Source: Caryophanon sp.
GTDB taxonomy: Bacteria > Bacillota > Bacilli > Bacillales_A > Planococcaceae
Assembly (NCBI GenBank): GCA_036309765.1
Contig: JAXJTE010000106.1
Span: 27,703 to 91,702 of the forward strand
Direction: 5' to 3'
Length of the DNA: 64,000 nucleotides
Within the stretch, counting starts at the first letter, position 1. Each line of letters begins with the position of its first letter. The translations under genes were made by a program, and so were the position numbers. The notes beneath the pieces are model-generated. The model was not told where the DNA came from, ran no database searches, and saw only the letters and a list, made by a program, of their open reading frames with translations. Below are positions 1,440 to 56,284 of this stretch, piece by piece.

Positions 1440-1625
1440 TCCTCGTAAGTGGTTGCTAAAAAAATCAGCTAGGCAGGTCTCCTGACTTCTACGCCAATCA
1501 AACGCACCTTCCCGATTGCTCAGTGGTATGTCGCATTTGTGCTCGTAGTTACAGTGGCGGGACCGTGTCGGATTTTCACCGAGCTTCCCTTTTCATCCTT
1601 TTACGAAGGAACCTAGCTAATGTAT
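1440..1625 (-). promoter_or_regulatory. Cobalamin (B12) riboswitch controlling the btuF-like/permease operon
   Basis: The minus strand reads ...GGTTCCTTCGTAAAAGGATGAAAAGGGAAGCTCGGTGAAAATCCGACACGGTCCCGCCACTGTAA...GGGAAGGTGCG...GAAGTCAGGAGACCTGCCTAGC. This holds the conserved GGGAAG..GGTGAAAATCC..GTCCCGCCACTG core and the AGTCAGGAGACCTGCC B12-box region. A TATAAT sits on the minus strand at 1644-1639. Confidence 0.85.
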
Positions 1626-1751
1626 GCAATTGTGTTATATTATAGCGCATTTTTTTCGCTGCGCACGAACTTTTCGTGATTTTAGGAAATATTCGAAATA
1701 ATATATGATAGCGTTTACGTTCCAAATATGGCGATGCAGCGTATATCGCAA

Positions 1752-10071: not shown

Positions 10072-10776
10072 ATGAAACGACTTACAAACATTGTCGTCAA
10101 TCTCATCTTAATCGCCATCATTTTCTCAGGTGTGTTATTAATTTTTAACCAACCGATTCAAGAGCATTTTATTAGTGAAGCGTCCGGCGATTTACTCGAC
10201 ATGGACGCTGATACAATCGCTGAAAATCATAACGCTGACGCATCATACAACTTCGACGACATCGAGGAGCTAACGTTAACCGATATTTTATCGCTACAAT
10301 CGACAAAAAGCTACGTGCCGGTCATCGCGCAAATTGCCATTCCGTCTGTGAACATTCGTTTACCAATCGCAAAAGGCTTGAGCGAAACCGCACTCGCAAC
10401 TGGCGCGGGTACGATGAAGGAATCACAGCAGCTCGGTGAAGGCAACTACACGCTTGCTAGTCACAACCTCGAAGGAACGGACGTATTATTTAGTCCGCTT
10501 CACCGTCTCGAAATTGGCGAGCTCATTTATATTACCGATTTACAAGACATCTATACGTATGAAGTAACGATTTCAGAAGTCGTTGAACCAACTGCGGTGT
10601 ACGTGCTAGACGATGTGCCAAATAAGCGACTATTAACGCTTATTACGTGCGCATTTGACGGTGCCGACCGCTTGCACATTCAAGCGACGTTTAAAGACAA
10701 AACGCCGCTAGATAAAGCGACACAAGAAATGCTAAACGCGTTTGATCGTTTACAAACACATACGCAATGGAAATAA
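10072..10776 (+). CDS. Sortase (class A/D-type transpeptidase)
   Basis: 234 aa with an N-terminal TM anchor, conserved His (LASHN), the TLITC active-site motif and a downstream Arg (RLHIQ). Confidence 0.85.
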   Translation: MKRLTNIVVNLILIAIIFSGVLLIFNQPIQEHFISEASGDLLDMDADTIAENHNADASYNFDDIEELTLTDILSLQSTKSYVPVIAQIAIPSVNIRLPIAKGLSETALATGAGTMKESQQLGEGNYTLASHNLEGTDVLFSPLHRLEIGELIYITDLQDIYTYEVTISEVVEPTAVYVLDDVPNKRLLTLITCAFDGADRLHIQATFKDKTPLDKATQEMLNAFDRLQTHTQWK

Positions 10777-10861
10777 TAAAAACTAAACTAAGCGGCTTGA
10801 GCTCTAAATTCTAGATGGCTCAGACCGTTTAGTCTTTTCCGATAAGGTTGATGATTATAAA
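10765..10861 (+). repeat. Direct repeat R1 (sortase 3' end + hairpin), paired with 11261..11357
   Basis: CAATGGAAATAATAAAAACTAAACTAAGCGGCTTGAGCTCTAAATTCTAGATGGCTCAGACCGTTTAGTC...GTTGATGATTATAAA. About 85% identical by eye to R2. Contains a terminator-like hairpin. Confidence 0.8.
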
Positions 10862-10873
10862 GGAGTTGCTTTA

Positions 10874-11230
10874 ATGCTGAAAAAAATATTATTATTGTTA
10901 ATATGTGCGAGTCTTATAACAGTCAGTGGCATTTACTTGATGCGCTACTTACTCATGAATGAGGTAGAAAATCACCTCGTTGAAGAAGAGTTTAAGAAAG
11001 ATACCTTCGAAATGAGCTATTATCGAAACATTTCTTTACAAGGGAACGACTCTAAACAAGTGAAAGTAATATTTAACGCTCAACCTGACTATCATTTTTA
11101 CTTTTACAAAAATGATGATGCAACAATTGAATTAAGAACAATAAAGGACCTTACAACAAATACAAGGCTTGGTACTGTTGATGAAATGGCGCCATATATA
11201 AGTGAAATTAATGAACTTAAAGAAAAATAA
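10874..11230 (+). CDS. Hypothetical small membrane-anchored protein
   Basis: 118 aa with an N-terminal hydrophobic helix (KILLLLICASLITVSGIYLM). AAGGAG RBS. Visibly AT-rich relative to its neighbours and flanked by the R1/R2 direct repeats. Confidence 0.5.
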   Translation: MLKKILLLLICASLITVSGIYLMRYLLMNEVENHLVEEEFKKDTFEMSYYRNISLQGNDSKQVKVIFNAQPDYHFYFYKNDDATIELRTIKDLTTNTRLGTVDEMAPYISEINELKEK

Positions 11231-11260
11231 ATCCTTCTAAACTGCTCTTTCCCAAATAGA

Positions 11261-11357
11261 CAATGAAAATAATAAAAATTAAGCTAAACGGTTTGAGCTC
11301 TGAATTCTAGAGAGCTTAAGCCGTTTAGTCGTTTTTGATAACGTTGATGATTATAAA
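11261..11357 (+). repeat. Direct repeat R2, paired with 10765..10861
   Basis: CAATGAAAATAATAAAAATTAAGCTAAACGGTTTGAGCTCTGAATTCTAGAGAGCTTAAGCCGTTTAGTC...GTTGATGATTATAAA. Confidence 0.8.
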
Positions 11358-11541
11358 CATCTATAGCCTTTCGTAACTCCTCAAATGACTGAAACTCATG
11401 CAAATTGAAGAACTGCTATTTTTTGTTCCACTGTATGCTTACTTCATGCCATAAAAAATATCCCCCAACAGGTAACAGATTTTGTTTTTTATCTGTCTAC
11501 CTATTGAGGAACATATCACAAATTTGGCGGCACTAGCTTTT

Positions 11542-12822
11542 TCATTTTCGACGCAGCAACGTTAAAATTTCGTTGCGCAGCGCATCATCTTCAATTGCTT
11601 CGACGACATCGAGTGGATAATAAATTTTGCGGTCTGGCTTTAACTTGCCAATGACCGCCTCGACAATCGGTGACACCGTCGATAGCTCCTGCAAGCTTCC
11701 ATCTGGCATCAGCATCATAATCGGATTTTGCGCACTCGCCTTATAAAAATCGTCCGACGTCGTATCAGACACCAAATAATAGAGCGGATCAATGCCCGCC
11801 TTCGCAAATAAAATTTGAAGCTTCACGTAGCGCTCCATATCCTCGTCGCTATTTAAATTGCTATATTTGAACAAGCGACGATTCACAAAGCGCGTGCATA
11901 AATCACGCAGCACCTCGTCTTTTTCGTTCATCCATAGCTGGAAATATGTAAGTAAAATGCTTTCGTCTAGCGCCACATAATCGGCTAGCGTAATGCGGTT
12001 CGTAAAAAACGGCACGAACGGTCGCGGTTCAATGTCAAACGTGTACTCATTCATATACAAATGCTTCGCGCGCTGCAAAATATGATTCAAAATCGCCTCC
12101 GCACTGCGCGACACCGGATGGAAATACACTTGCAAATACATTTGATAGCGCGACATAATGTAATCCTCAACCGCATGCATGCCGCTGTATTTCATCACCG
12201 CCTGCTCCTTCGCCGGTCGAATCACACGCAAAATGCGCTCCAAATCAAAATGCCCGTACGTTACCCCTGTATAAAACGCGTCTCGCTGCAAATAATCCAT
12301 GCGGTCCACGTCCATTTGGCTCGAAATTAAACTAACGACAAGCTTGTTCTCATACGTCTTCTCAATGACTTGCGATACTTTAAGCGGAAAATCATCGCTC
12401 ACTTTTCGCAGCACCGCATTGACCTCTGTATCGCCAAGCAAAATTTCACGCGTGTAAAACTCATGGTCAAGCTGAAACACATTTTCAAACGCATGCGAAA
12501 ATGGTCCATGCCCTAAATCATGTAGTAACGCCGCACATAATACGACTAACCGCTCGCTATCATCCCACTCCGCACGCCCTTTAAAATGGTCATCTACAAG
12601 TCGACGCATGAGCTCATAAACCCCAAGCGAATGGTTAAAGCGCGTATGCTCCGCTCCGTGGAACACTAAAAATGTCGTCCCAAGTTGGCGAATACGACGC
12701 AGCCGCTGAAATTCCCTCGTACTAATTAAATCCCAAATGACTTGATCGCGCACATGCACATAGCTATGCACAGGGTCTTTAAACACCTTTTCCTCATGAA
12801 GCTTTCGATCTTTATATCGCAT
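11542..12822 (-). CDS. HD-domain metal-dependent phosphohydrolase (YwfO-like, dNTP triphosphohydrolase-related)
   Basis: HD motif region RFNHSLGV...LLHDLGHGPFSH...DVDRMDYLQRD. Start chosen at the ATG at 12822 after AAGGAGGG. Confidence 0.85.
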   Translation of the reverse strand: MRYKDRKLHEEKVFKDPVHSYVHVRDQVIWDLISTREFQRLRRIRQLGTTFLVFHGAEHTRFNHSLGVYELMRRLVDDHFKGRAEWDDSERLVVLCAALLHDLGHGPFSHAFENVFQLDHEFYTREILLGDTEVNAVLRKVSDDFPLKVSQVIEKTYENKLVVSLISSQMDVDRMDYLQRDAFYTGVTYGHFDLERILRVIRPAKEQAVMKYSGMHAVEDYIMSRYQMYLQVYFHPVSRSAEAILNHILQRAKHLYMNEYTFDIEPRPFVPFFTNRITLADYVALDESILLTYFQLWMNEKDEVLRDLCTRFVNRRLFKYSNLNSDEDMERYVKLQILFAKAGIDPLYYLVSDTTSDDFYKASAQNPIMMLMPDGSLQELSTVSPIVEAVIGKLKPDRKIYYPLDVVEAIEDDALRNEILTLLRRK

Positions 12823-12907
12823 CACTATACAGCCCTCCTTCACTCTTTCCTTCATTATAATCGACGCGGCGCATTTCGTAAAAAAAGCCTTATAGCGAAT
12901 GCATCGA

Positions 12908-12940
12908 AAAAAAAATGTATCCGAAAAGAATTCGAATACA
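12908..12940 (-). terminator. Rho-independent terminator after the DUF1450 gene
   Basis: The minus strand reads GTGTATTCGAATTCTTTTCGGATACA followed by TTTTTTTTT. Confidence 0.7.
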
Positions 12941-12946
12941 CTTTTG

Positions 12947-13174
12947 TTACACCATTTTCAGTTTTGCTTTTACTTTTTCCATTAGCTCTTCCTCTGTTAA
13001 GGCCGCTACTGGGCGACTGTTGACGAAGGTAAATGTTTTTTTACGTCCTGGGCCACAATAAGAATGGCAACCAATTTCAATCGTCGCGTCTGAATCGATA
13101 TCCTTTAACTTCGGAATTAATGTTTTCAAGTTGACAGCTTGGCACTCATCACAAACTTTAAATTCGTTTGCCAT
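12947..13174 (-). CDS. DUF1450 family protein (YuzB/YwzC-like)
   Basis: About 75 aa with CDEC...CHSYCGPG cysteine motifs. It lies between the ywfO-like and lipL-like genes. Start chosen at MANEF (the ORF track starts 10 codons earlier). Confidence 0.65.
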
Positions 13175-13283
13175 TGCGTTTTCAACCCTTTCTATTCTAA
13201 TCATTCAATATGCTATTTTACCGCAAAAAACGAATGACTTTCAACTGAAAAAGAATGTGTTTATACTTTTACAGCGGCTACGT

Positions 13284-14111
13284 TCATTGTTTGTCCATAT
13301 TGTCGAGCATTTTGTCGTTGCGCTCTAAAATGCGCGTTAAATAATAGAAGTAACGCGTATTTTCGTCGTCGTTAAACGGCATGTAACGCACGTCGCGAGT
13401 CAATTGCGTAACGATGTGCTGCAATCGTGCCACAACATCGCTTACGGTCATTGGTGTAATGAGTTCACTAATCGATGCCATAACATGCGGCGTAATTTGT
13501 GGATATTGAAACTTCGTTGTCTCGCCCTTTAAGCTCTCCCTGTAAAAATCACGAATGAGTGCTGCTCGCTCTGCCCCGCTTCCTTCCACACAAATATAAA
13601 TTTGTACAGCGATTCCTTGACGCATGCGGCGCTGAGAAATACCTGCGAACTTTTTGCCGTCGATGCTTAAATCAAAGCTACCAGGACAGTACGAGCCAAC
13701 AATTTCATACGCCTCGATGCTCGCTTCAGGAAACAGCAAACGAATGAGCGACACCATCGCCTCGTACGCTTCGTCAATCGATAGGCGCGTATCCTGCTCT
13801 GACATAATAAGCGACACGTTTAAAATGCCGCTATCAAGCACGACCGCTAAGCCGCCTGAGTTGCGTACAATTGGCGTGTAACCGTGCTGCTGTAAATACG
13901 TTTTGCCGTCGTGTAAATGCGGCAGGCGATGGTCTTGAATGCCGAGTACGACCGATGCATCGTGTACCCATGTGCGAATCGTCCACGGTGAGTTGCCGGC
14001 GCCGATTGCCTCACAAAGTGTGTCGTCCGTTGCGAATGATTCAAGTGGTGATTTCGTTTTATTCGTAATCGATTGGTCAATGAAGCGCCAAATTGGTCGT
14101 TGTAAGTTCAT
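13284..14111 (-). CDS. lipL: Lipoate-protein ligase family protein, octanoyl-[GcvH]:protein N-octanoyltransferase LipL-like
   Basis: BPL/LPL catalytic-domain features (RNSGGLAVVLD, KKFAGISQRR). Size and synteny match B. subtilis ywfL/lipL. Confidence 0.75.
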   Translation of the reverse strand: MNLQRPIWRFIDQSITNKTKSPLESFATDDTLCEAIGAGNSPWTIRTWVHDASVVLGIQDHRLPHLHDGKTYLQQHGYTPIVRNSGGLAVVLDSGILNVSLIMSEQDTRLSIDEAYEAMVSLIRLLFPEASIEAYEIVGSYCPGSFDLSIDGKKFAGISQRRMRQGIAVQIYICVEGSGAERAALIRDFYRESLKGETTKFQYPQITPHVMASISELITPMTVSDVVARLQHIVTQLTRDVRYMPFNDDENTRYFYYLTRILERNDKMLDNMDKQ

Positions 14112-15228: not shown

Positions 15229-15398
15229 TATACAAGCTCCTTTTGAAAGTTCTTGTACTACAATAAACTATTTCACAGTATCATTTCTATCTTTTCATTT
15301 TGTGCTGAACTGGCGAAATGGCACATTTGCACTTAAGCGCGATAAATGATTGTACGTTACATCATTTTGCCGCAAAACTAAGCATCGCTGTTTGAGCT

Positions 15399-15512
15399 CT
15401 ATACAATGAACTTAATGCTGTAACTTTTCTTTTGTTTCGGCGGATGCTTTTCACGGGCACGTCAGAACGATGAATTCCTCGTGTTCTATTCAAAAGTTCG
15501 ACCTATATATTC
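15399..15512. repeat. Palindromic repeat, TIR subfamily, copy F
   Basis: TATACAATGAACTT...TTCTTTTGTTTCGGCGGATGCTTTTC...CACGTCAGAACGATG...AAGTTCGACCTATATA. Homologous to 27421..27550. The right end overlaps the last codons and the stop of the M20 gene. Confidence 0.75.
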
Positions 15513-20862: not shown

Positions 20863-22215
20863 ATGAACAAAAGCTATAGCATAAGCAGCTGGCTATACTT
20901 CATCATCCCGTCGCTCATCGGTGCATTTTTATTTATGACGCCGATCAAGCTCGACGGCGAATGGAAAGTACCCATTGCCATGCTGTCAAACTGGCTCGAT
21001 GGCATTGTCGTCAACGTCATCGAACCGTTTGCGCTATTTATTTTCATCGTAGCCGCAGTTGGCTCAATCATTAAATTATTTTCACCTGAACCGACAACGC
21101 GCTCATTTAGTGATCAATTATTCCGTGTTCATTGGTTTTGGACAATTACGCGCGTACTTGCGGCTGTTTTTGCAGCGATGGTGTACTTCGATTTCGGACC
21201 AGAAATGATCACGAGTGACGACACAGGCGGTTTATTATTTGCAGGTGGTGGCGGTTTAGCGACGTATTTATTCGTCATCTTCCTATTTGCCGGCATCATT
21301 TTACCGTTTTTAACGGACTTCGGCTTGCTTGAATTTTTCGGCTCGCTCATGGTGAAAATTGTACGGCCATTATTTAAAATTCCAGGGCGTGCCTCAATTG
21401 ATGCGCTTGCTTCATGGGTTGGTGACGGCACGATTGGCGTGTTCCTGACAAACAAGCAGTACGAGGACGGCAATTATACGAAGCGTGAAGCCGCAATTAT
21501 TGCGACGACGTTTTCGGTCGTGTCGATTACGTTTAGTATCGTCATTTTAGAGGAAGTCGGCTTGCCGCAATACTTCCCGCAATATTACGGAACGATTGTG
21601 CTTTGTGGTGTCGTGCTTGCACTCATTATGCCGCGCATTTATCCGCTTCGTGGCAAAAGCAATACGTATATAAACGATGCGCCTGCTGATGCAACACGCG
21701 AAGATTTACCCGCGGGGCATACAGTGCTGTCGTACGGAATTGAAAATGCGATGAACAAAGCAAATGCAAATCGCAACTTAAGCAAGCTCGTGCTAAACGG
21801 CTTTAAAAACGTACTCGATATGTGGTTCGCCGTTGCACCAGTTGTGATGACGTTCGGTACGGTTGCACTTATTTTAGCGACTTATACCGATTTATTTAAA
21901 ATTTTAGGTACGCCGTTTGAGTATTACTTAGCGTTTTTAAACGTGCCAGAAGCAGCTGAAGCAGCACAAACGATGGTCGTTGGCTTTGCCGACATGCTGC
22001 TCCCTGCGATTTTAGCGTCGGGCATCGAATCGGAAATGACACGCTTCATTATCGCGACTGTTTCTGTCACGCAATTAATTTACATGTCGGAAATTGGCGG
22101 GCTCATTTTAGGCACGAAGCTACCGATTAATTTTAAAGATTTAGTTGTCATCTTTTTACTACGTACAGTCATTTCATTGCCGATTGTAGCAGGCATTGCG
22201 CATTTGATTTTCTAA
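20863..22215 (+). CDS. Polytopic membrane protein, YjiH / nucleoside-recognition (Gate) domain-like
   Basis: 450 aa with about 10-12 hydrophobic segments. The family call is from memory of the N-terminal pattern (WLYFIIPSLIGAFLFMTPI) and the size. No diagnostic motif was verified. Confidence 0.45.
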   Translation: MNKSYSISSWLYFIIPSLIGAFLFMTPIKLDGEWKVPIAMLSNWLDGIVVNVIEPFALFIFIVAAVGSIIKLFSPEPTTRSFSDQLFRVHWFWTITRVLAAVFAAMVYFDFGPEMITSDDTGGLLFAGGGGLATYLFVIFLFAGIILPFLTDFGLLEFFGSLMVKIVRPLFKIPGRASIDALASWVGDGTIGVFLTNKQYEDGNYTKREAAIIATTFSVVSITFSIVILEEVGLPQYFPQYYGTIVLCGVVLALIMPRIYPLRGKSNTYINDAPADATREDLPAGHTVLSYGIENAMNKANANRNLSKLVLNGFKNVLDMWFAVAPVVMTFGTVALILATYTDLFKILGTPFEYYLAFLNVPEAAEAAQTMVVGFADMLLPAILASGIESEMTRFIIATVSVTQLIYMSEIGGLILGTKLPINFKDLVVIFLLRTVISLPIVAGIAHLIF

Positions 22216-22221
22216 AACAAA

Positions 22222-22266
22222 AAACGCCGTGAACGGAAAAATTACGTTTCCATTCACGGCGTTTCT
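22222..22266. terminator. Bidirectional terminator
   Basis: AAAAAACGCCGTGAACGGAAAAATTACGTTTCCATTCACGGCGTTTCTTTTT. Confidence 0.85.
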
Positions 22267-22268
22267 TT

Positions 22269-22892
22269 TTATTTCGAGCCTGCTGTCCAGTTCATACCCC
22301 ATTTATATGCTTGGTCCATTTGCTTATGCCCATCAAAATATTCAACGAGGCGCTCGACGCGGAACGTTTCATTGTTGACGTTTTCAATCATCGCGATTGC
22401 GCACATAATTTTACCGTTACGGTGCTCATCTAAACGCACTTCAATGTCGGCGCCGCCTGGGTATTTGAGCGTTACTAATCCGTCCGCTTCTGACCAGTTC
22501 GCAACGCCCTCATAAATAAATGCATACACAAGTACGCGACGAATGTCCGCGATTTTTGCGCCATTAATTCGCAAGTTTTCCCCTGATGTAACGGCACCTG
22601 TACGGTCATCGCCATCTAGTGCGATGTACGGTGGTGCATTAAAGTCCCCGAATGCATTTCCGAGCGCCTGCACACAACCTTTTGAACCATCCGTAAACTC
22701 GAATAAACAACCTAAATCTAAATCAACGTTCGATGAGCCACCACCAAATAACGATGCCATAAAGCCTTTTTTCTGTGGTGCTTGCTGGTTCCAGTTTAAG
22801 TTAATATGAATTTCACCAAGTGACTGTGCGCCCTTCGTTAAGTTAATCGACTGCCCTTTTTTCGTTAATTCAATTTTATTTAAATTTACCAA
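22269..22892 (-). CDS. Divergent TerD-domain protein (TerZ/TerX/TerA-like), last gene of the Ter biosynthetic operon
   Basis: The N-terminus VNLNKIELTKKGQSINLTK matches the TerD pattern MxxLxKGQxIxLTK. Also DLDLGCLF. The Ca-site motif is degenerate (GDDRTGAVTSGENL). Start chosen at the TTG at 22892, 8 nt after AAGGGGG. Confidence 0.75.
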   Translation of the reverse strand: MVNLNKIELTKKGQSINLTKGAQSLGEIHINLNWNQQAPQKKGFMASLFGGGSSNVDLDLGCLFEFTDGSKGCVQALGNAFGDFNAPPYIALDGDDRTGAVTSGENLRINGAKIADIRRVLVYAFIYEGVANWSEADGLVTLKYPGGADIEVRLDEHRNGKIMCAIAMIENVNNETFRVERLVEYFDGHKQMDQAYKWGMNWTAGSK

Positions 22893-22905
22893 GTGCAATT
22901 CCCCC

Positions 22906-23697
22906 TTATACGGTCGTTTTTGTCGCTAAAATTTGTGCCAGCATTGCCTCAGCAAATTCTGCACCTTCCTTTAAAATAACATTCACCGGACATGTATCAC
23001 CGTATTTCTCGTACACTTCACCGTGCTTTGGCGTGTAGCCCACGTCTGCAAACTGCATCATGCCTAGATCCATCATCGAATCCCCTGCTGCGATATGCTC
23101 CGTATGTGCTAGCTGACTCGCAACGTACTTCACCGCCGCTTCTTTCGTCAACGTAGACGGCAGTGCATAAAACTTACGCCCGTGTAAATACGACGTCCAG
23201 CCTTCTGTTGCTAAGTCGTCTTGGAACGCACGTAGCTCCTCGTGTCGCAGTGTCGCTAAATCAACTGCCAGCATGTAAAACAGCCCTTCTACCTCATATT
23301 CACGAAGAAAAAAGTCGTGCGCACGATGCATTTCAAAGCGCGTCGGGAAGTCACAAATCGGCAGTGCTTCTTTCATATTTTGCTGCACAATTTCGTCCCA
23401 CTGTGTATCACGCTTACCATCTTTAAAAATAATGCCGCCATTTGCCATCACCGCATACGACGGAATAAGCTCCTGCTGGAAAAATGATACGCGCTCGTAC
23501 TGCATTTGCGAGCGTGTCGTCACCGGTATAATATGTGTGCTTTCTTTTAACTCATGTAGCATGTCGATTTGCTTATTCGACATGAACGACTGCTCTTTTC
23601 CTTCGAACAACTCAACACAACGCACATCGGTACAATTCCCGATCGTACGGTTTGAGAAAATAAGCGTGCGGTCTAAATCGGTTGTAAATAGCTTCAT
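22906..23697 (-). CDS. HAD-superfamily phosphatase (Ter-cluster-associated)
   Basis: Motif I TDLDRTLIF (DxDxT) and motif IV GDSMMD. Its ATG overlaps the upstream stop (ATGA). Confidence 0.8.
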   Translation of the reverse strand: MKLFTTDLDRTLIFSNRTIGNCTDVRCVELFEGKEQSFMSNKQIDMLHELKESTHIIPVTTRSQMQYERVSFFQQELIPSYAVMANGGIIFKDGKRDTQWDEIVQQNMKEALPICDFPTRFEMHRAHDFFLREYEVEGLFYMLAVDLATLRHEELRAFQDDLATEGWTSYLHGRKFYALPSTLTKEAAVKYVASQLAHTEHIAAGDSMMDLGMMQFADVGYTPKHGEVYEKYGDTCPVNVILKEGAEFAEAMLAQILATKTTV

Positions 23698-24806
23698 TTC
23701 ATCACGTCCTTAATTAATCCACAGCATGAGTACTCCATATCCTCATACACTTCAATTGGCACGTTTCGCTCCGCTGCAAGCATGCGAATGTGCGTTAAAT
23801 CGTTGTCGTACTTCGGGTTCACAAGAATTTTCCACGGCACGCGGCGCAGTAGCACGCGTGTCGTTTCCCCCACACCTGGCTTAATATAATTTATTTTGGC
23901 AATATCGTATTTCTCTTTAATGACTTCTACCGACTGCATACCGCGCCATGTCGGTGTACGGTCTGACTGTAACACATCTTGTAGCGTCGCATGAATAGCG
24001 TCTTTTACATCCTCGAACTGATTGCTCACTTCATCGACATAATAGTTTGACACATCCTGCTCTGCAAATTCCTTATAATATTTCGCACCGTGGAAGTCGC
24101 CCTCCTCGATAAACGCGGGATTTAATACAGTACGACTCACTAAGCCTGACACTGTCGAATTTAAACAAGCAGACGGAATTAAAAAATCATCGCGCGTGCC
24201 GTACACTTCAACACAATGCCCCGGATCTGCAAGCACCGCTAAATCAGGATCGATAAGGTTCGGTCGCTTCGCACTGTACTCATCACACGCCGTCACGAGT
24301 TCACGCGTAATCGCCCCTTTACCCGTCCAGCCGTCAACAAACTGAATGTTCGCCTCCGCATGATGCTCAAAAATATAATCAATCGCTGTCTCATCAATGC
24401 CACGGTCACGCACAATCGAAATCGAATAATGTGGCACCGTGACGTGATAGACGTGCTGTATGTATCGTTTAATTAAAATGCCAATCGGTGTCCCTGCACG
24501 CGCTAAACTGACAAGCACAAGTTGGTCGAGCCCTCGATTTTTGACGATTTGCTCGGCGACAACACCCGTCGCAATCGCAATGCGCTGTGCATATTCCTTT
24601 AACGTTGCGTGGAATAGCTCCATGTACTGCTCACCTGGCTGAAACTCCACTGGTAACATTTCCGCATAGTGCGTGCCACTTTGAATTAAATGCTCACGCT
24701 CTGTCGTATCACGCTCAATATTAATCTCGCTAATATCGCGCAGTAAAAATACCACGTCCTGTTCATTGTAACTCCCTAATACATCTGGTTCATATTTCGT
24801 CTTCAT
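23694..24806 (-). CDS. Ter-associated phosphoribosyltransferase-like protein (PRTase_1 / 'StiP' family, with a C-terminal PELOTA-like region)
   Basis: 370 aa. LVLVSLARAGTPIGILIKRY resembles the PRTase nucleotide-binding loop. Family assignment is from memory of Ter-cluster gene content. AAGGGAG RBS. Confidence 0.6.
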   Translation of the reverse strand: MKTKYEPDVLGSYNEQDVVFLLRDISEINIERDTTEREHLIQSGTHYAEMLPVEFQPGEQYMELFHATLKEYAQRIAIATGVVAEQIVKNRGLDQLVLVSLARAGTPIGILIKRYIQHVYHVTVPHYSISIVRDRGIDETAIDYIFEHHAEANIQFVDGWTGKGAITRELVTACDEYSAKRPNLIDPDLAVLADPGHCVEVYGTRDDFLIPSACLNSTVSGLVSRTVLNPAFIEEGDFHGAKYYKEFAEQDVSNYYVDEVSNQFEDVKDAIHATLQDVLQSDRTPTWRGMQSVEVIKEKYDIAKINYIKPGVGETTRVLLRRVPWKILVNPKYDNDLTHIRMLAAERNVPIEVYEDMEYSCCGLIKDVMK

Positions 24807-24820
24807 GCGAATTACTCCCT

Positions 24821-26155
24821 TCAGTCTGCTAGTTTAATAATGGTAATCTGTGGAATGTTTGCGTATGATAATGCGTCGATTAACTGTTGTAGTGCATGCT
24901 CACTCGTCACCCGTTCGAGTATGATGAACGCGTCGTCGTAATGATTTACTGGAATGTTGTAAGCGTAGTTTTGAACACCGGCATGCTCTGGGCTTTCAAA
25001 TGTGTACTGGTTATAAATATAGCTGTCTGGGTGTGCATAAATCGGGCTTCTCGTTGTAGAGTGATACATCACACCATCACCAAGCAAGGCGGCAATGCGC
25101 ATCGGAATGTACATAAACTCTCCTGTACCAAGCACGAGCGTTTTGTTGCCTCGTCGCATTTGCTGGAATGTCTGTTGCTTCGCCGCAAGCTTTGTGCGAA
25201 TTGTGACGTCATCGTCCTTTGATAAGCCAAATCGTCCGCTGCCGATAAAGTACGGCGTGTAACAAATCGTCTCGTCGTCTTGCTTCGATGGCTCGGTCAT
25301 GTAATACGCATCGTCCATATGAATCGTCTCTATCGTAATATTCGGTGTAAGTGCTTGTTGTGCCCGCTGTGTGATGCGCTCTTCTGGTGCTTCACCGTGA
25401 ACAGTAATACGCCCTTCAAGCACGTTCACCTCTTGAATCGTAATTCCATGCGCCGCTTCGAAATCACGGTACGCTTGACGATGCTCGTCGCTGCGCCAAT
25501 CTAAAATTGACACGATGACGAAGCGCTTTTTGTGTGGGAAGCGTGCTAAAATTTGCGCGATAATGTTTAAGTTCGTTTGACCCGTTGTTAGCTCATCATC
25601 AACGAGTGCAATTTCAGCATCGCCGTCGAAAAATGCGCTGTTTTGCATGTACACGTTATGCGTCGTCGCGTGCGAATGCTCCTCCTCAAACGTCGTCAGC
25701 GGTGTTAAGTTGATTAGATGTTCACGCGTCGTATGTACGTATTCAATGTCGCCAGCAAAAGCATTGAAAAACGCATGCCCGAGTGCCGTCGCGGTTTCCG
25801 CAAAGCCAATTACTTTCATCGGCTGCGGAGCAATAACGGGCTGCTGCTCTAATGCAAGCAAGCTATCATGTAAGTTGTCGCGCGTTTTAATCGTTTCTGC
25901 AACTGCCTGCGCACGCACATCTGCTTTCTGATGCACAATGTCCATATAGCGCATCGCTAGCAACTGTCCGAGCAGCAACGGAATTTGCGGTGGCAACGCG
26001 ATATGCTTCCCTAGTACGTTGCTAATGAATAGGAAGCTGCGTTTTTTATTGATGCGCATCGCCATTTCAAATAGCTGTGATTCGTTAAATTGATATGGGT
26101 TATTTGTGACGTGTACATCGACATGCACTTGATTAAGAATCGAGTACTTTGTCAT
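24821..26155 (-). CDS. Phosphoribosyltransferase (PRTase_2) with a C-terminal TRSP-type domain
   Basis: Canonical PRPP-binding motif ALVDDELTTGQT. 444 aa. GAGGAGG RBS embedded in the 3' end of the upstream lyase gene (23-nt overlap). Confidence 0.75.
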   Translation of the reverse strand: MTKYSILNQVHVDVHVTNNPYQFNESQLFEMAMRINKKRSFLFISNVLGKHIALPPQIPLLLGQLLAMRYMDIVHQKADVRAQAVAETIKTRDNLHDSLLALEQQPVIAPQPMKVIGFAETATALGHAFFNAFAGDIEYVHTTREHLINLTPLTTFEEEHSHATTHNVYMQNSAFFDGDAEIALVDDELTTGQTNLNIIAQILARFPHKKRFVIVSILDWRSDEHRQAYRDFEAAHGITIQEVNVLEGRITVHGEAPEERITQRAQQALTPNITIETIHMDDAYYMTEPSKQDDETICYTPYFIGSGRFGLSKDDDVTIRTKLAAKQQTFQQMRRGNKTLVLGTGEFMYIPMRIAALLGDGVMYHSTTRSPIYAHPDSYIYNQYTFESPEHAGVQNYAYNIPVNHYDDAFIILERVTSEHALQQLIDALSYANIPQITIIKLAD

Positions 26156-27338
26156 GACGAATCGCCTCCTCTAATAATAACGAGCGGAAGTCCTCATTCG
26201 GGTTGTACACACCGTACGTACGCGCTCGGTGCATAACGCGCTCTGCCCAGTGGAAATGTGGCTTCATTTCGTTCATTTTGTTATTGTACATACTTTTTTG
26301 CACACCAATTTGTCCATCACTGTTTTGCAAAATATTTTCAGCATCCATATATTCCTCATGCGTCACGACATACATCGCGTTCACCGGCAAAATATGCGTC
26401 GGATGAATAATCGTCTTGCCGACAAGCCCGTTAATTTGATCTAAAAATACTTCGCGCATTAAGCCATCAACGTATTCATTAATCAACTGTTCGCGTGCTT
26501 CTAAGCCGACTTGACCGTAACGCATCATAAATGGTGTTTCGCGCAGCGCGGTACGGAATATACGCGTTTTATTCGTAAAGTATTCCCACACCGGCCCTGA
26601 AATAACGAATCGATGCTCAGTGCGATTTAAAATATTAATAATATCCGCGATGCAATCACGCACAATCGTCACATCATAAATCGTCGAGTCAACGCGGCGA
26701 CGAATACCAAATAAGCCACAAAAATCTGTCGTGCCAATACGTACGTTTAACACATAGTCGTAATATGTAATTAAAATCTCACGAATGGCCAGTAAGCTTT
26801 CAAAGCGACGTTCCTTAAAGATCACATCGTCTGATTCTAAAATCGGCATGCCATATAACGTATAACCTAACTCGTTTTGCTGCACAATTTGTTCAAAAAA
26901 TGCCTTGCCATTTGCTTGACCAAACTTCGGAAAAACATAGCCTGTCAACGCGTTTTGCGCCTCGCCCAACGTTTTGATTACCTCTGCTAGTTGCTCAGGG
27001 TTGCGAACGCGCACGAAAATAAGTGGTAAATCCTCAATTGTTAATACACCATCGTCCATGAACGCTTGAAACGCTCTCATATTTTCCACTAAAATGTGAA
27101 ACGCTTCCTCTAACTCCTCATCACCAACTGCATCCTCCAAATCGATAATCATCGACGTTAAGTACGGATGCTTTTTCATCAATACTTCCTGCGCTAAGCC
27201 TCGTCTTGTTGCTGGCATATACAATGCGCCACCTAAGCAATACGCCAAATCCTCGCGCGGTGTCAGCTTACTAAACTGCATCGGCTGCTTAAAAAAAATG
27301 GTGTCATTTCGCTCTTCGTTGTATGAAAAAAAACGCAT
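26133..27338 (-). CDS. HpcH/HpaI aldolase / citrate-lyase-beta-like TIM-barrel C-C bond lyase (Ter-associated)
   Basis: IIDLEDAVG and GKTIIHPTHI motifs, as in the CitE/HpcH family. 401 aa. Confidence 0.75.
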   Translation of the reverse strand: MRFFSYNEERNDTIFFKQPMQFSKLTPREDLAYCLGGALYMPATRRGLAQEVLMKKHPYLTSMIIDLEDAVGDEELEEAFHILVENMRAFQAFMDDGVLTIEDLPLIFVRVRNPEQLAEVIKTLGEAQNALTGYVFPKFGQANGKAFFEQIVQQNELGYTLYGMPILESDDVIFKERRFESLLAIREILITYYDYVLNVRIGTTDFCGLFGIRRRVDSTIYDVTIVRDCIADIINILNRTEHRFVISGPVWEYFTNKTRIFRTALRETPFMMRYGQVGLEAREQLINEYVDGLMREVFLDQINGLVGKTIIHPTHILPVNAMYVVTHEEYMDAENILQNSDGQIGVQKSMYNNKMNEMKPHFHWAERVMHRARTYGVYNPNEDFRSLLLEEAIRHDKVLDS

Positions 27339-27420
27339 AGATCAATCTCCTTTCTTTCACCTATTACACTTTCATTATCTATTCTTTTACCCTATTTTTC
27401 CCATTAAAAAACGTACGATA

Positions 27421-27550
27421 TATATTGAACTTAAGACTGTAACCGCTCGTTCTTTTGTTTCGGCGGACGCTTTTCCTGCTGGAGTCGCCGCCTACACGTC
27501 AAAACAATGCGTTTGTCATGTTAGATACAAAAGTTCAATCTATATAGTCT
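27421..27550. repeat. Palindromic repeat, TIR subfamily, copy E
   Basis: TATATATTGAACTT...TTCTTTTGTTTCGGCGGACGCTTTTCC...CACGTCAAAACAATG...AAGTTCAATCTATATA. It lies between the terD terminator and the lyase gene. Confidence 0.8.
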
Positions 27551-27561
27551 GTATTGAAACA

Positions 27562-27596
27562 AAAAAGGTGATCCGCTTACACGTATCACCTCTTTC
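27562..27596 (-). terminator. Rho-independent terminator after the third terD gene
   Basis: The minus strand reads AGGTGATACGTGTAAGCGGATCACCTTTTTTGTTTC. Confidence 0.75.
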
Positions 27597-27607
27597 ACAT
27601 TCTTCAC

Positions 27608-28186
27608 TTAAACGGATAAGCCGTATGCACGCACGAGCGCCGCTAAGCCACCTTGATAGCCTGAGCCGATTGCGTTAAACTTCCATTCCGCACCGTGGCG
27701 GTATAGTTCACAAAATACGACCGCTGTTTCAATAGAGAAGTCCTCGCCTAAATCAAAGCGTAGCACCTCATAGTCGTTATCTTGGTTTACTAAGCGCGCA
27801 AATGCGTTCGTCACTTGTCCGAAGTTTTGATTGCGCTGCTCCGCGTCATGAATCGTTACGGTAATCGCAATGCGGTGTACGTTCGCCGGCACTTGCGATA
27901 GCTTGATTGTCACTTGCTCATCATCGCCATCGCCCTCACCTGTACGATTGTCACCTAAATGCGTTACCGAACCGTCTGAGCTTTGTAAGTTGTTATAAAA
28001 AATGAAATCGTTGTCGCTACGACATTTCCCTGATTCATCTAATAAAAAGATTGATGCATCTAAGTCAAAATCTTGCCCGCCGTCGAATGTTTTTACGTCC
28101 CAGCCTAAGCCGATTACAATATTTTGAAGCGATGGATCATTTTTCGTTAAATCAATACGTTGACCTTTGCTTAACTGAATTGCCAT
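27608..28186 (-). CDS. TerD family stress protein
   Basis: 192 aa: [26 protein letters not shown], Ca-site motif [15 protein letters not shown]. Confidence 0.9.
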
Positions 28187-28357
28187 TGGAATGCCCCCTT
28201 GGATTTAGAAGAATATGTGCGACTTCGCTCATCACGTCAAGGTAGACTTTTCATTAAAGTCCACCTGTCGTTACGAGCTAGCCGCTTCAACTGCATTTCA
28301 CTTGTTATATCGAAAAGAAAAATGTCGAGCAAATGCTGGACATTTTTCGTTCTGCTA

Positions 28358-28939
28358 TTAACCTACTTGTAAACCGAAATCGCTACATAGTGCTGCTAAG
28401 CCGCCTTGGTAGCCCGAGCCGATTGCTGAGAATTTCCACTCGCCGCTATGACGGTATAATTCACCAACAACTAATGCTGTTTCGATTGAGAAGTCTTCAC
28501 CTAAGTCGTAACGAATTACTTCTTCGCTTGATGCTTCGTTTACAACGCGGATAAATGCGTTTGATACCATACCGAAATTTTGACCGCGTGCTTCTGCATC
28601 ATGGATTGTTACAGTGAACGTAATACGTTGAACAGATGCTGGTACGTCGTTTAATGCGATGACTACTGCTTCGTCATCTCCTGCACCGTCACCTGTTAAG
28701 TTATCGCCTGAGTGTACAACTGAACCGTTACCACCTGTTGTGTTGTTGTAGAAGATGAAATCTGCTGGGCCTGTTACTTTGCCGTCTTCACCTAATAAAA
28801 ATACTGAAGAATCTAAATCGAAATCTTGCCCACCATCATACTTGTTTGTGTCCCAGCCTAGACCGATATGTACCTTCGTTAAGCCCGGATTTGTTTTTGT
28901 TAAATCAACCTTTTGACCTTTTGATAATGAAACTACCAT
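28358..28939 (-). CDS. TerD family stress protein
   Basis: 193 aa: [41 protein letters not shown]. Confidence 0.9.
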
Positions 28940-28971
28940 GTAATGTTTCCTCCTTTAAATGTGTTCATGTA

Positions 28972-29580
28972 TTAACGGTAACGATTGACAACGCCGCTTA
29001 AGCCTTCATCTGTCGTACCTGTTCCAATTGCGCCAAACTTCCACTCATTGCCGTTGCGATAAATTTCGCCTGTAATAAGCGCTGTTTGCCCACCGTAATT
29101 ATCTGTTAAGTTGTAACGTAAAAGCTCTTCATTGCTCGCTGGATTTAGCACGCGAATGTACGCATTTTGAATCATACCGAAATCTTGATTGCGCTTTTTC
29201 GCTTCGTAAATGTTTACGACAAATACTAATTTGTTATATTGAGTTGGTACAGCGTTTAAGTCGATGAAAATTGTTTCATCATCGCCTGAACCTTCACCCG
29301 TCAAGTTATCGCCTGAATGCTTCACAGAGCCATCTGTACTTGCTTTGCGTCCGAAATAAACAACATCATCCTGGTTGACTAAACGATCGTTTTGCAGCAT
29401 GATTACCGATGCATCACAGTCGACGCTTGCGCCACCGCCACCACCGAATAAACCACCTAGCAAACCACCGCTTTTCTTTTGCTCAACAGGATCCCAGCCT
29501 AAGCCGACCTGTAAGCGTGAAAGACCCGCATTCCCTTTTGTTAAATCAATGCGTTGTCCTTTTTGTAAATTCACTACCAC
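28972..29580 (-). CDS. TerD family stress protein (YceC-like, with a Gly-rich insert)
   Basis: 202 aa: [52 protein letters not shown]. Confidence 0.9.
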   Translation of the reverse strand: MVVNLQKGQRIDLTKGNAGLSRLQVGLGWDPVEQKKSGGLLGGLFGGGGGASVDCDASVIMLQNDRLVNQDDVVYFGRKASTDGSVKHSGDNLTGEGSGDDETIFIDLNAVPTQYNKLVFVVNIYEAKKRNQDFGMIQNAYIRVLNPASNEELLRYNLTDNYGGQTALITGEIYRNGNEWKFGAIGTGTTDEGLSGVVNRYR

Positions 29581-29879
29581 GAATATACAACTCCCTTACA
29601 TGTGTAATTTGTTGCTATACTATTGCTTACGCTTTCACGCAAAAAAGGTCATTTCTCAAAAAATTAAGCCTTTTTTCCATTATAAAAGCTCCCCCAAAAT
29701 AATGCCAATTTGCGCCCCACAAAATTACAGCGATTTTTTCAGCCTGAGATTTCTTCCTACAACCGCACCGCTTCTTCATCACACAATTTTTAGAATTAAC
29801 AAAATATTTTCATCATGGCAGTGGAAAATATGATAGAATAGTTCAACACGATTTTTAAGTTATGCGGAGGAATTGACTA

Positions 29880-34095: not shown

Positions 34096-34284
34096 CTGTT
34101 ATCCCCCTTCTGTTACGTTGAAGTGCTAAATTGTTTCAAGATAACGTTTATATTAATACTGAATTTTCTATCAGTCAACAACATTCTGAAATTTCCAATA
34201 TTTAAAACGTCATTACACTTCTGTTTTTATTCATTTGACGTCAGATGTGTGAAGCTTTACAATAATAACTTGTGTGTCACACAC

Positions 34285-34322
34285 CGTGGTTCGTAACCAT
34301 CCCACGCAAAAAAACTAAGGAG
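34285..34322 (+). promoter_or_regulatory. preQ1-I riboswitch (aptamer 34285-34318, overlapping the AAGGAG Shine-Dalgarno at 34317-34322)
   Basis: CGTGGTTCGTAACCATCCCACGCAAAAAAACTAAGG aligns position by position with the B. subtilis queC aptamer AGAGGUUCUAGCUACACCCUCUAUAAAAAACUAAGG (P1 CGTGG/CCACG, A-rich tail, CTAAGG). Confidence 0.85.
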
Positions 34323-34330
34323 AAATGAAT

Positions 34331-36894: not shown

Positions 36895-37172
36895 TTCGAA
36901 CGGATTTGAGTAGAGAAAAGTAGAGCAGAGCATAGTTGAGAAATTGATGACATAAGAAGAGTACTGTGAACGACGTATTATAGAGAGCTAGTGGTCGGTG
37001 CAAACTAGTATACCGTTTATACGAATGGACTTATGAGAGCTGTTAATACCAGACGTCTTCCCTACGTTATAAGGGAGCTTGAGATGGAAGTAGCGATACT
37101 TCTAATTTGAGGTGGCAACGCGGTAACAATCGTCCTCTACATGTGTAAAAGCATGTAGGGGCTTTTTTTGTT
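36895..37172 (+). promoter_or_regulatory. T-box riboswitch, tryptophan-specific (UGG specifier)
   Basis: Stem I elements (TAGAGAG GA motif, AGTA, distal GGTCGGTGCAAAC). Specifier context GAA-TGG-A with UGG at 37026-37028. T-box sequence AATTTGAGGTGGCAACGCGG at 37104-37123. Terminator CCTCTACATG...CATGTAGGGGCTTTTTTT at 37134-37169. Confidence 0.85.
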
Positions 37173-56098: not shown

Positions 56099-56117
56099 AA
56101 ACAGCTTGAGACAAAAC

Positions 56118-56158
56118 AAAGCGTTATGGGAAAAATGAATTTTTCCCATAACGCTTTT
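56118..56158 (+). terminator. Rho-independent terminator after topB
   Basis: AAAGCGTTATGGGAAAAATGAATTTTTCCCATAACGCTTTT. Confidence 0.85.
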
Positions 56159-56284
56159 CTGCTTTTCGACTATAATTTGTTACCTGAACACTACGTCATC
56201 AAAATTCCAACATAATATTCATTCATTGAAAGCTTGAAATTCACTTCTGTTCCAAATCCCTCTTAATTGATATTAAAAACTTTC

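Follow-up and report, generated by a model that had tools for sequence, protein, structure and literature searches.

What does the group of Ter genes in this Caryophanon genome amount to, and do the putative enzyme genes that stand beside its terD genes belong to the same system? The locus lies at positions 22269 to 29580 of a 64,000-nucleotide (nt) stretch of contig JAXJTE010000106.1 (positions 27,703 to 91,702 of the forward strand; here called the window), and an earlier note on this DNA had read it as a reduced Ter-type stress cluster with three TerD paralogues and a five-gene module for a nucleoside-like metabolite. The Ter stress cluster is widespread, and this locus is a chromosomal copy of it in a Caryophanon species, both intact and ordinary; we regard the identification of the cluster and of its parts as virtually certain.

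A check of the open reading frames (ORFs) found eight co-oriented minus-strand genes that span the whole locus, as the earlier note had described them. All of the motifs it had quoted (IIDLEDAVG, GKTIIHPTHI, VDDELTTGQT, DLDRT, GDSMMD, and GDN(L/R)TG(E/D)GxGDDE) were found in the translations, and its account of the junctions was also correct: the lyase and PRTase_2 genes overlap by 23 nt (26133 to 26155), a 14-nt gap (24807 to 24820) separates the PRTase_2 gene from the StiP gene, the StiP and HAD genes share an ATGA overlap (23694 to 23697), and a short gap precedes the last gene. The predicted CitE/HpcH-like TIM-barrel lyase, the phosphoribosyltransferase (PRTase) with a long C-terminal extension, the second PRTase-like protein, and the HAD phosphatase all matched Ter-associated Pfam families far above threshold (Table 1). 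The products of terD1 to terD3 scored 236 to 287 bits over the full-length Pfam TerD domain (PF02342), the gathering score of which is 25.3 bits. Judged from the ratios of nonsynonymous to synonymous substitution (dN/dS, 0.00 to 0.08 in the comparison with Caryophanon latum), purifying selection on each of the eight genes is strong.

A 25-sequence lyase alignment was used to fetch 80 loci, all from Bacillota, from a one-genome-per-species collection. For their annotation, blastp queries were taken from the window, from Sporosarcina and Lysinibacillus, and from two plasmids, a ter plasmid of Klebsiella and one plasmid of Alkaliphilus; the counts given here rest on the 76 loci with a complete module. 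A TerD gene was present within 10 kb in all 76 loci, which represent Bacillales and Clostridia, and exactly three copies were found in 58. The four-enzyme core was likewise present in 76/76 loci, counting six fusions of PRTase_2 and StiP; it is universal in the sample because the six loci that seemingly had no PRTase_2 carry the fused ORF. The earlier note had named two outcomes as damaging to its reading, namely, enzymes that fall outside the Ter-associated families and enzyme genes that are not conserved together with terD, and the reverse was found in both cases.

Among the partner genes, TerC was found in 52 of the 76 loci, YceG in 41, TelA in 40, a TerA-like gene in 34, ATP-grasp in 25, TerB in 22, and vWA in 9. 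Two nearly exclusive architectures dominate: one with YceG and TelA, usually together with TerC, and one with ATP-grasp, TerB, and a TerA-like gene, which is found in Paenibacillaceae. In the 64-kb window, tblastn with Sporosarcina and Lysinibacillus queries detected no TerC, YceG, or TelA (best E value, 0.6), and tblastn and blastp detected no TerB, ATP-grasp, or vWA gene. To this extent, the description of the locus as a reduced version stands, and seven loci are equally bare in having no TerC, TerB, YceG, TelA, or ATP-grasp at all. The exact layout of the window (three terD genes, four enzyme genes, a TerA-like gene, and nothing else) was seen only in C. latum and Ureibacillus sinduriensis (2/76). 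The absence of ATP-grasp, however, is the majority state (51/76 loci) and therefore not a special reduction; the window has the four-enzyme form. The system is a known one, and the locus is a cut-down variant of it whose reduced layout is real but rare. The proposal that it could serve as a tractable minimal model was not established, as TerC or TelA could be encoded at another site of the genome and equally bare or richer versions exist in other genera. Some of these are expected to be easier to manipulate, and Caryophanon is expected to be a poor genetic model compared with Lysinibacillus, the Bacillus pumilus group, or heterologous expression in Bacillus subtilis.

Table 1. Genes and predicted transcription signals of the Caryophanon Ter locus (positions are those of the window; aa, amino acids)
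Feature	Position	Strand	Description
Promoter-like site TTGGCA-18-TATAAT	29679-29708	-	Near-consensus sigma-70-type, 11/12 matches (consensus scan); ~100 nt upstream of terD1
terD1	28972-29580	-	TerD family, 202 aa, GTG start; Pfam PF02342, E = 3e-70
terD2	28358-28939	-	Canonical TerD/TerE-type calcium-motif protein, 193 aa; Pfam PF02342, E = 2e-83
Hairpin after terD2	28317-28348	-	Weak U-tract; -17.9 kcal/mol, z = -4.6
terD3	27608-28186	-	Canonical TerD/TerE type, 192 aa; Pfam PF02342, E = 8e-86
Intrinsic-terminator hairpin with U6 after terD3	27555-27597	-	-19.4 kcal/mol, z = -4.5; conserved in C. latum
CitE/HpcH-like TIM-barrel C-C lyase	26133-27338	-	401 aa; C-C_Bond_Lyase PF15617, E = 5.5e-118
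PRTase_2-TRSP protein	24821-26155	-	444 aa; PF15609, E = 1.4e-63; TRSP PF12500, E = 4.3e-37
StiP-PELOTA protein	23694-24806	-	370 aa; PF11202, E = 6e-108; PELOTA_1 PF15608, E = 1.9e-35
HAD-IIB phosphatase (Cof/sucrose-phosphate-phosphatase-like)	22906-23697	-	263 aa; Pfam Hydrolase_3 and S6PP; NCBIfam Cof/SPP subfamilies
Stand-alone TerA C-terminal-domain protein (TerA-C)	22269-22898	-	TerD, 25.1 bits, just below gathering score of 25.3
Strong terminator after TerA-C gene	22220-22266	.	20- to 21-bp stem, A/U-tracts on both sides; -31 kcal/mol, z = -8.9

The claim that all three TerD proteins are canonical holds for terD2 and terD3, each of which is 61% identical to Klebsiella TerD; the terD3 product is also 100% identical in amino acid sequence to that of C. 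latum. The GDNxTGxGxGDDE-type motifs are intact in all three, including the calcium-type motif GDNLTGEGSGDDE of terD1. However, terD1 is not strictly canonical, because it has a Gly-rich insertion, which the alignment also placed in Klebsiella TerZ, TerX, and TerA, and because it is 43% identical to TerZ versus 40% to TerD/TerE. The insertion, which resembles GGLLGGLFGGG and stands just before the DxD motif, occurs in terD1, in the TerA-C protein described below, and in TerZ, TerX, and TerA of the Klebsiella plasmid locus (L086) but not in canonical TerD/TerE proteins; proteins of the TerD fold that carry it may form a functional subclass.

The product of the last gene of the cluster (here TerA-C) is a free-standing protein orthologous to the C-terminal half of TerA from enterobacteria. 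The earlier note had called it a fourth, divergent TerD, which is right as to the fold; more exactly, it is the TerA C-terminal domain, with 48% identity over 206 aa to residues 182 to 383 of Klebsiella TerA (E value, 3e-62) and only marginal similarity to TerD, TerE, TerZ, and TerX. The five-gene module is thus present, but its composition is four enzymes plus a TerA-type protein and not five enzymes. With 207 to 209 aa, TerA-C covers the C-terminal domain alone, the N-terminal TerD-like domain of TerA being missing. The most likely true start, judged from the context of the codon, is TTG at 22892, which lies 8 nt after the ribosome-binding site AAGGGGGA and gives a protein of 207 aa, as in C. 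latum. The protein is ~70% identical across Bacillales genera, and its Sporosarcina orthologue (69% identity) is encoded directly after HAD, as here. Yet the gene is not obligately clustered, since in Robertmurraya and Heyndrickxia it is solitary among unrelated genes. A search of a library of 1.84 billion representatives gave 230 related clusters at an E value of ≤1e-30; the best 150 of these were mostly two-domain proteins of 370 to 460 aa that match in their C-terminal half, and ~29 of the best 150, counted from the listed lengths, were stand-alone proteins of ~200 aa. The AlphaFold2 (AF2) model of TerA-C (mean predicted local distance difference test [pLDDT] score, 81.6) matched the TerD-fold structures 9a6r_B, 2qng, 2qz7, 3ibz, and 2kxt with a probability of 1.0 at 11 to 21% identity. 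Of the calcium motif, TerA-C retains DLDLG and GDDRTG, and because GxGDD is missing, we infer altered calcium binding.

The terminator-like hairpins (Table 1) and a drop in metatranscriptome depth suggest two transcription units, an abundant terD1-terD2-terD3 unit and a five-gene unit that is weakly expressed or reached by read-through. The RNA data are contigs assembled from three gut metatranscriptome runs, in which terD1 to terD3 were covered continuously at a word depth of 21 to 69 and the enzyme genes at a word depth of 0 to 7, a crude measure of depth to which DNA carry-over may have contributed. Contigs of all three runs end at 27597 to 27620, and the hairpin after terD3 is the likely boundary between the units. 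The hairpin after terD2 is at most leaky, possibly a partial terminator, as RNA contigs cross it. A single contig over the HAD and TerA-C genes ends at 22258, within the strong terminator that the cluster shares with the convergent downstream gene. Of the RNA contigs near the predicted terD1 promoter, one stops at 29632, one stops at 29658, and one reaches 29756; the transcription start is uncertain because the last of these extends upstream of the predicted promoter. Synonymous divergence (dS) from C. latum is 0.27 to 0.48 for the terD genes versus 0.72 to 1.05 for the enzyme genes, and the lower values fit the stronger codon constraint that would follow from high expression. The RNA pattern is analogous to proteomics of Bacillus altitudinis, in which only the TerD proteins stood out under tellurite (PMC11994780). 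An internal sigmaB-type promoter was also considered: a sigmaB-like GTTTTT-N14-GGGTAA lies at 27387 to 27412 on the minus strand, ~50 nt before the start codon of the lyase gene. The motif is present in the Caryophanon window and C. latum only and in none of the other 78 loci, and we gave it little weight.

The cluster lies in a conserved chromosomal setting. A C. latum contig is syntenic over the cluster and both flanks, the GC content of the cluster (0.41 to 0.47) is close to the ~0.44 typical of the window, and the flanking genes are housekeeping genes, namely, those for a threonine-dehydratase-like (IlvA-like) protein, a branched-chain-type ABC transporter, a Gate-domain membrane protein, a DUF1806 protein, a PIG-L deacetylase, and a ThiD/PdxK-like kinase. 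Megablast of the locus against plasmids gave no near-identical match, which indicates that it is not a mobile copy. The Gate-domain gene (20863 to 22215, plus strand; 450 aa; PF07670, "Gate / nucleoside recognition") was considered as a transporter of the product. It is convergent on the cluster, and beyond the window the two are neighbors in C. latum and a single closely syntenic metagenome-assembled genome (MAG) only; adjacency so limited suggests plain chromosomal synteny rather than a part of the system.

Other elements were seen in the window. The spacer between terD3 and the lyase gene contains a 128-nt insertion (27402 to 27529) with a GC-rich hairpin; alignment showed it to be missing in C. 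latum. The insertion represents a small, dispersed repeat of intergenic regions, a second copy of which lies at 15395 to 15485 (~77% over ~95 nt; core, 25/26). Rfam matches above the gathering threshold were (i) a cobalamin riboswitch at 1455 to 1631 (minus strand), (ii) a preQ1 riboswitch at 34280 to 34324 (plus strand), and (iii) a T-box leader at 36938 to 37140 (plus strand). The GC content falls to 0.32 at 56001 to 58000, versus ~0.44 in the rest of the window, and this segment may be foreign or merely AT rich.

Turning to the enzymes, a look-up of the exact lyase sequence gave no recorded protein, and its C. latum orthologue, with 93% identity, was used in its place. The lyase has remote matches to RipC/CitE in NCBIfam and to PDB entries 3qll and 5vxc, the former with an E value of 2e-4 when the 25-sequence profile was used. 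Its likeness to the CitE/RipC/CLYBL acyl-coenzyme A (acyl-CoA) C-C lyases consists in the aligned DLED and C-terminal G-K-x-x-I-H-P signatures. The differences are that the match is remote and covers ~60 to 115 residues, that the lyase here is ~100 residues longer, and that it gives no sign of a CoA thioester substrate. Residues E68, D69, R110, E168, and D205 are among the invariants in 25 homologues, and by our own reading, E168 and D205 presumably occupy the positions expected for metal ligands. In the PRTase_2-TRSP protein, the phosphoribosyl pyrophosphate (PRPP) loop VDDELTTGQT (D-D-E-x-T-T-G-x-T) is canonical. Like the motif EEHSHAxxH, it shows ≥95% conservation across 80 sequences, that of Klebsiella among them, and the GTGEFM and TTRSP motifs of the TRSP domain are also conserved. 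This protein is the candidate catalytic phosphoribosyltransferase; a sequence search of PDB for a solved relative gave noise only. In the HAD phosphatase, all four catalytic motifs (DxDxT, the Thr of PVTT(R), a Lys, and GDSxxD) are ≥95% conserved in 81 orthologues.

The StiP protein is the most conserved of the four enzymes across genera (identity, ~66%; lyase, 55%; PRTase_2, 45%; HAD, 40%). Its family, PF11202, is currently named "cysteine protease StiP" and was earlier named PRTase_1; the present name goes back to work by Reichert et al. (2013) on Acinetobacter baylyi, as cited in PMC11994780. A sequence search of PDB with StiP gave no matches. In a Foldseek search of PDB with its AF2 model (pLDDT, 81.3), the N-terminal part matched PyrR/HGPRT with a probability of 1.0, the C-terminal part matched L7Ae-type binders of kink turns (K-turns), and all 21 matches at an E value of ≤0.001 were type I PRTases; no protease fold was among the 50 matches listed. 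Weak PyrR matches in NCBIfam are independent of the fold search. The model supports a PRTase fold for StiP and, with it, the original PRTase_1 assignment. StiP resembles PyrR/HGPRT (2igb, 1a3c, and 3gep) in its core fold (target-normalized TM-score, ~0.5), in a pyrophosphate (PPi)-loop-like RAGxP loop, and in a TGKG loop; it differs in its low identity (14 to 23%), in the reduction of the acidic pair of the PRPP loop to a single Asp, and in two additions, a helical region at the N terminus and an L7Ae/Pelota-like domain at the C terminus. The PPi-loop-like SLARAGxPxG is invariant, and the TGKG phosphate loop is kept. The PRPP loop itself, FVDGWTGKGAI, is atypical in having one acidic residue (D-G versus D-D/E-D) and is invariant in Bacillota and Klebsiella; with a single acidic residue there, StiP may be noncatalytic.

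In six of the 76 loci, PRTase_2-TRSP and StiP-PELOTA form a single ORF, and this recurrent fusion argues that the two proteins act as a complex. The fused ORFs (~810 to 845 aa) lie at about 11115 to 13660 in each of loci L016, L017, L044, L054, L072, and L074 and come from Paenibacillaceae, Clostridia, and one Lysinibacillus-like MAG.

For the function of the cluster, we lean, on balance, toward a nucleoside-like-metabolite mechanism after the model of Anantharaman, Iyer, and Aravind (2012), as that model is presented in PMC11994780, PMC9240799, and PMC7824862. PRTase_2, probably in complex with StiP, would couple PRPP to an acceptor made or trimmed by the CitE-like, Mg-dependent lyase, and the HAD phosphatase would then strip the 5'-phosphate to yield a small, nucleoside-like molecule. 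Its calcium-dependent receivers or effectors in envelope, oxidative, or phage stress would be the TerD-fold proteins, TerA-C among them; the trigger could be metal or oxidative stress, envelope stress, or phage. The model of signal synthesis plus receiver was restated by Iyer et al. in 2021 (PMC7824862). Several points weigh against this mechanism. No close solved structure was found by sequence search for any of the four enzymes, and the literature searched gave no product, substrate, or activity for any of them, in line with the statement of the earlier note that neither product nor enzymology had been determined. The binding of a metabolite by the TerD proteins and TerA-C is a putative step, the RNA depths are crude, and the PRPP loop of StiP is atypical. 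In addition, the Acinetobacter homologue of StiP is reported to have protease activity (Reichert et al., 2013, as cited in PMC11994780).

A narrower form of the metabolite mechanism, in which the locus would be a self-contained synthase-receptor unit, seems to us rather improbable. PRTase_2-TRSP would be the sole transferase, StiP a PyrR-like, nucleotide-sensing or RNA-binding subunit of its complex, and TerA-C a dedicated soluble receptor, so that signaling would proceed without TerC, TelA, or TerB. The TerA-C gene is tightly packed behind HAD, and its product is among the most conserved of the cluster.

The main alternative to StiP as a second transferase is StiP as a sensing or scaffolding subunit. 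PRTase_2 would then be the only such enzyme, and StiP would be a noncatalytic PRTase-fold sensor of nucleotides or PRPP (compare PyrR and PurR), with RNA or a ribose-phosphate as ligand of its L7Ae/Pelota-like domain, that regulates or scaffolds the others. We hold this as a tentative possibility. The best fold matches are to the nucleotide-sensing and RNA-binding PyrR and to the K-turn binder L7Ae, the degenerate one-Asp loop is invariant from Caryophanon to Klebsiella, the protein is more conserved than its neighbors, and the fusions suggest a physical complex with PRTase_2-TRSP. Nevertheless, the retained SLARAGxPxG and TGKG loops are compatible with catalysis on an unusual substrate, and no riboswitch or leader RNA was matched in Rfam at 22.1 to 30 kb, either at the gathering threshold or at an E value of ≤1; an hhalign comparison of StiP with PRTase_2 was uninformative (probability, 0.2; number of effective sequences [Neff], 2.7, from our own alignments). 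If instead PF11202 is a cysteine protease, the role of the cluster would be in stationary-phase or stress proteolysis and morphology control. The family name and the conservation of C198, H126, and H239 from Caryophanon to Klebsiella would agree with this, but no other cysteine is conserved beyond Bacillota, the strongest conservation of StiP is in its PRTase-type loops, none of the 50 listed fold matches is a protease, and the gene always lies between the PRTase and HAD genes and is at times fused to the former. A proteolytic role for StiP is less likely than a catalytic or regulatory one, and we consider the protease reading of the cluster very unlikely.

A different view of the module as a whole would make it chiefly a phage- or plasmid-conflict system, in which a nucleotide-derived alarm signal is relayed to TerD-fold executors of a protective or abortive response and tellurite resistance is a side effect. 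Ter genes have been linked to phage resistance, plasmid fertility inhibition, and jumbo phages (PMC7824862), and more than 2,500 plasmid records carry the module, most of them for conjugative plasmids of enterobacteria (Klebsiella, Escherichia, Enterobacter, and Salmonella), as do four predicted viral contigs in IMG/VR (L090 to L093). On these contigs, two of which exceed 230 kb, PRTase_2, StiP, and HAD were found in 4/4 and the lyase and a TerD-family protein in 3/4 each, and one contig carries a full terZABCDE-like set. On the other hand, none of the eight Caryophanon proteins matched PADLOC-DB v2 at an E value of ≤0.01, the locus sits amid housekeeping genes in synteny with C. latum and has an ordinary GC content with no defence island, and three gut metatranscriptome runs, from samples in which phage may have been present, held abundant terD1 to terD3 transcripts. 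We judge it unlikely that such conflict is the chief role of the module. A chance association of the terD genes with five functionally unrelated genes downstream might be argued from the terminator and 269-nt spacer between terD3 and the lyase gene and from their different expression levels; the constant presence of terD in the neighborhood survey and the same linkage on Klebsiella plasmids and viral contigs exclude this for all practical purposes. The mechanism based on a nucleoside-like metabolite is the one that we retain.

The enzyme module is abundant, with more than 3,400 lyase homologues at an E value of ≤1e-10 and at least 8,000 PF11202 homologues, and published work ties Ter genes to tellurite, oxidative, and phage resistance and to the survival of pathogens in macrophages. 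The presumed small-molecule product of the Ter enzymes was not identified in the literature searched, a question that is not specific to the Caryophanon locus. What the locus offers is a natural experiment, in that TerD proteins, four enzymes, and TerA-C persist together under strong purifying selection without membrane or submembrane partners at the locus. Several observations are also useful for annotation and experimental design: the label "cysteine protease StiP" appears to be at odds with the modeled PRTase fold, PRTase_2 and StiP are occasionally fused, and the ATP-grasp/TerB and YceG/TelA layouts are nearly exclusive.

The cluster type, its components, and its gene order are already in the literature, and the window locus adds no new component. 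In a different phylum, Klebsiella pneumoniae plasmid pHA2-23-vir (L086) carries the same four enzyme families (PRTase_2-TRSP, 29% identity; PF11202-PELOTA, 36%; lyase, 27%; HAD-IIB, 25%), linked to terZABCDE with TerD/TerE-type proteins of ~60% identity, a TerZ-like protein, and a TerA that is 48% identical over the C-terminal domain. Compared with the Klebsiella ter island, the window is without the ATP-grasp ligase, TerB, TerC, TerY/vWA, the PP2C phosphatase, and the kinase; the lyase gene comes first in the Caryophanon order and last in that of Klebsiella, TerA is reduced to its C-terminal domain, and the locus is chromosomal amid housekeeping genes rather than on a plasmid or island. The HAD-IIB orthologue of the Klebsiella locus (25% identity; E value, 2e-10) is the product of the gene at 10162 to 10935, which is flanked by the PRTase and StiP genes and annotated as a "hypothetical protein"; it has the DxDxT and GDSxxD motifs. 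Escherichia coli plasmids also carry the Ter-associated enzyme module.

The B. subtilis yceCDEFGH operon shares with the window a run of TerD paralogues (YceC/SCP2, YceD, and YceE), and the SCP2 model 9a6r_B, which we take to be YceC from its UniProt name, is the best structural match of TerA-C. The window is the reverse case, in that it has the enzyme module without TerC (MeeF/YceF), YceG, and TelA (YceH), whereas the yceC operon is described as comprising terD-family genes, terC, yceG, and telA, with no mention of an enzyme module (PMC9240799). TerC functions in the manganese metalation of exported enzymes (PMC10550928), and the window locus, having no TerC, cannot itself supply this function. 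The common layout in Caryophanaceae and Bacillaceae adds TerC, YceG, and TelA, and that of B. altitudinis adds TerB as well (PMC11994780), none of which is in the window. The closest likeness in gene order is nevertheless to this same group: the order of three terD genes, in some cases terC, and then the lyase, PRTase, StiP, and HAD genes has been published for B. altitudinis 3W19 (PMC11994780), and the succession of three terD genes, lyase, PRTase_2-TRSP, StiP-PELOTA, and HAD in the Caryophanon window is identical to that in B. altitudinis 3W19 and in Sporosarcina, Lysinibacillus, and Cytobacillus.

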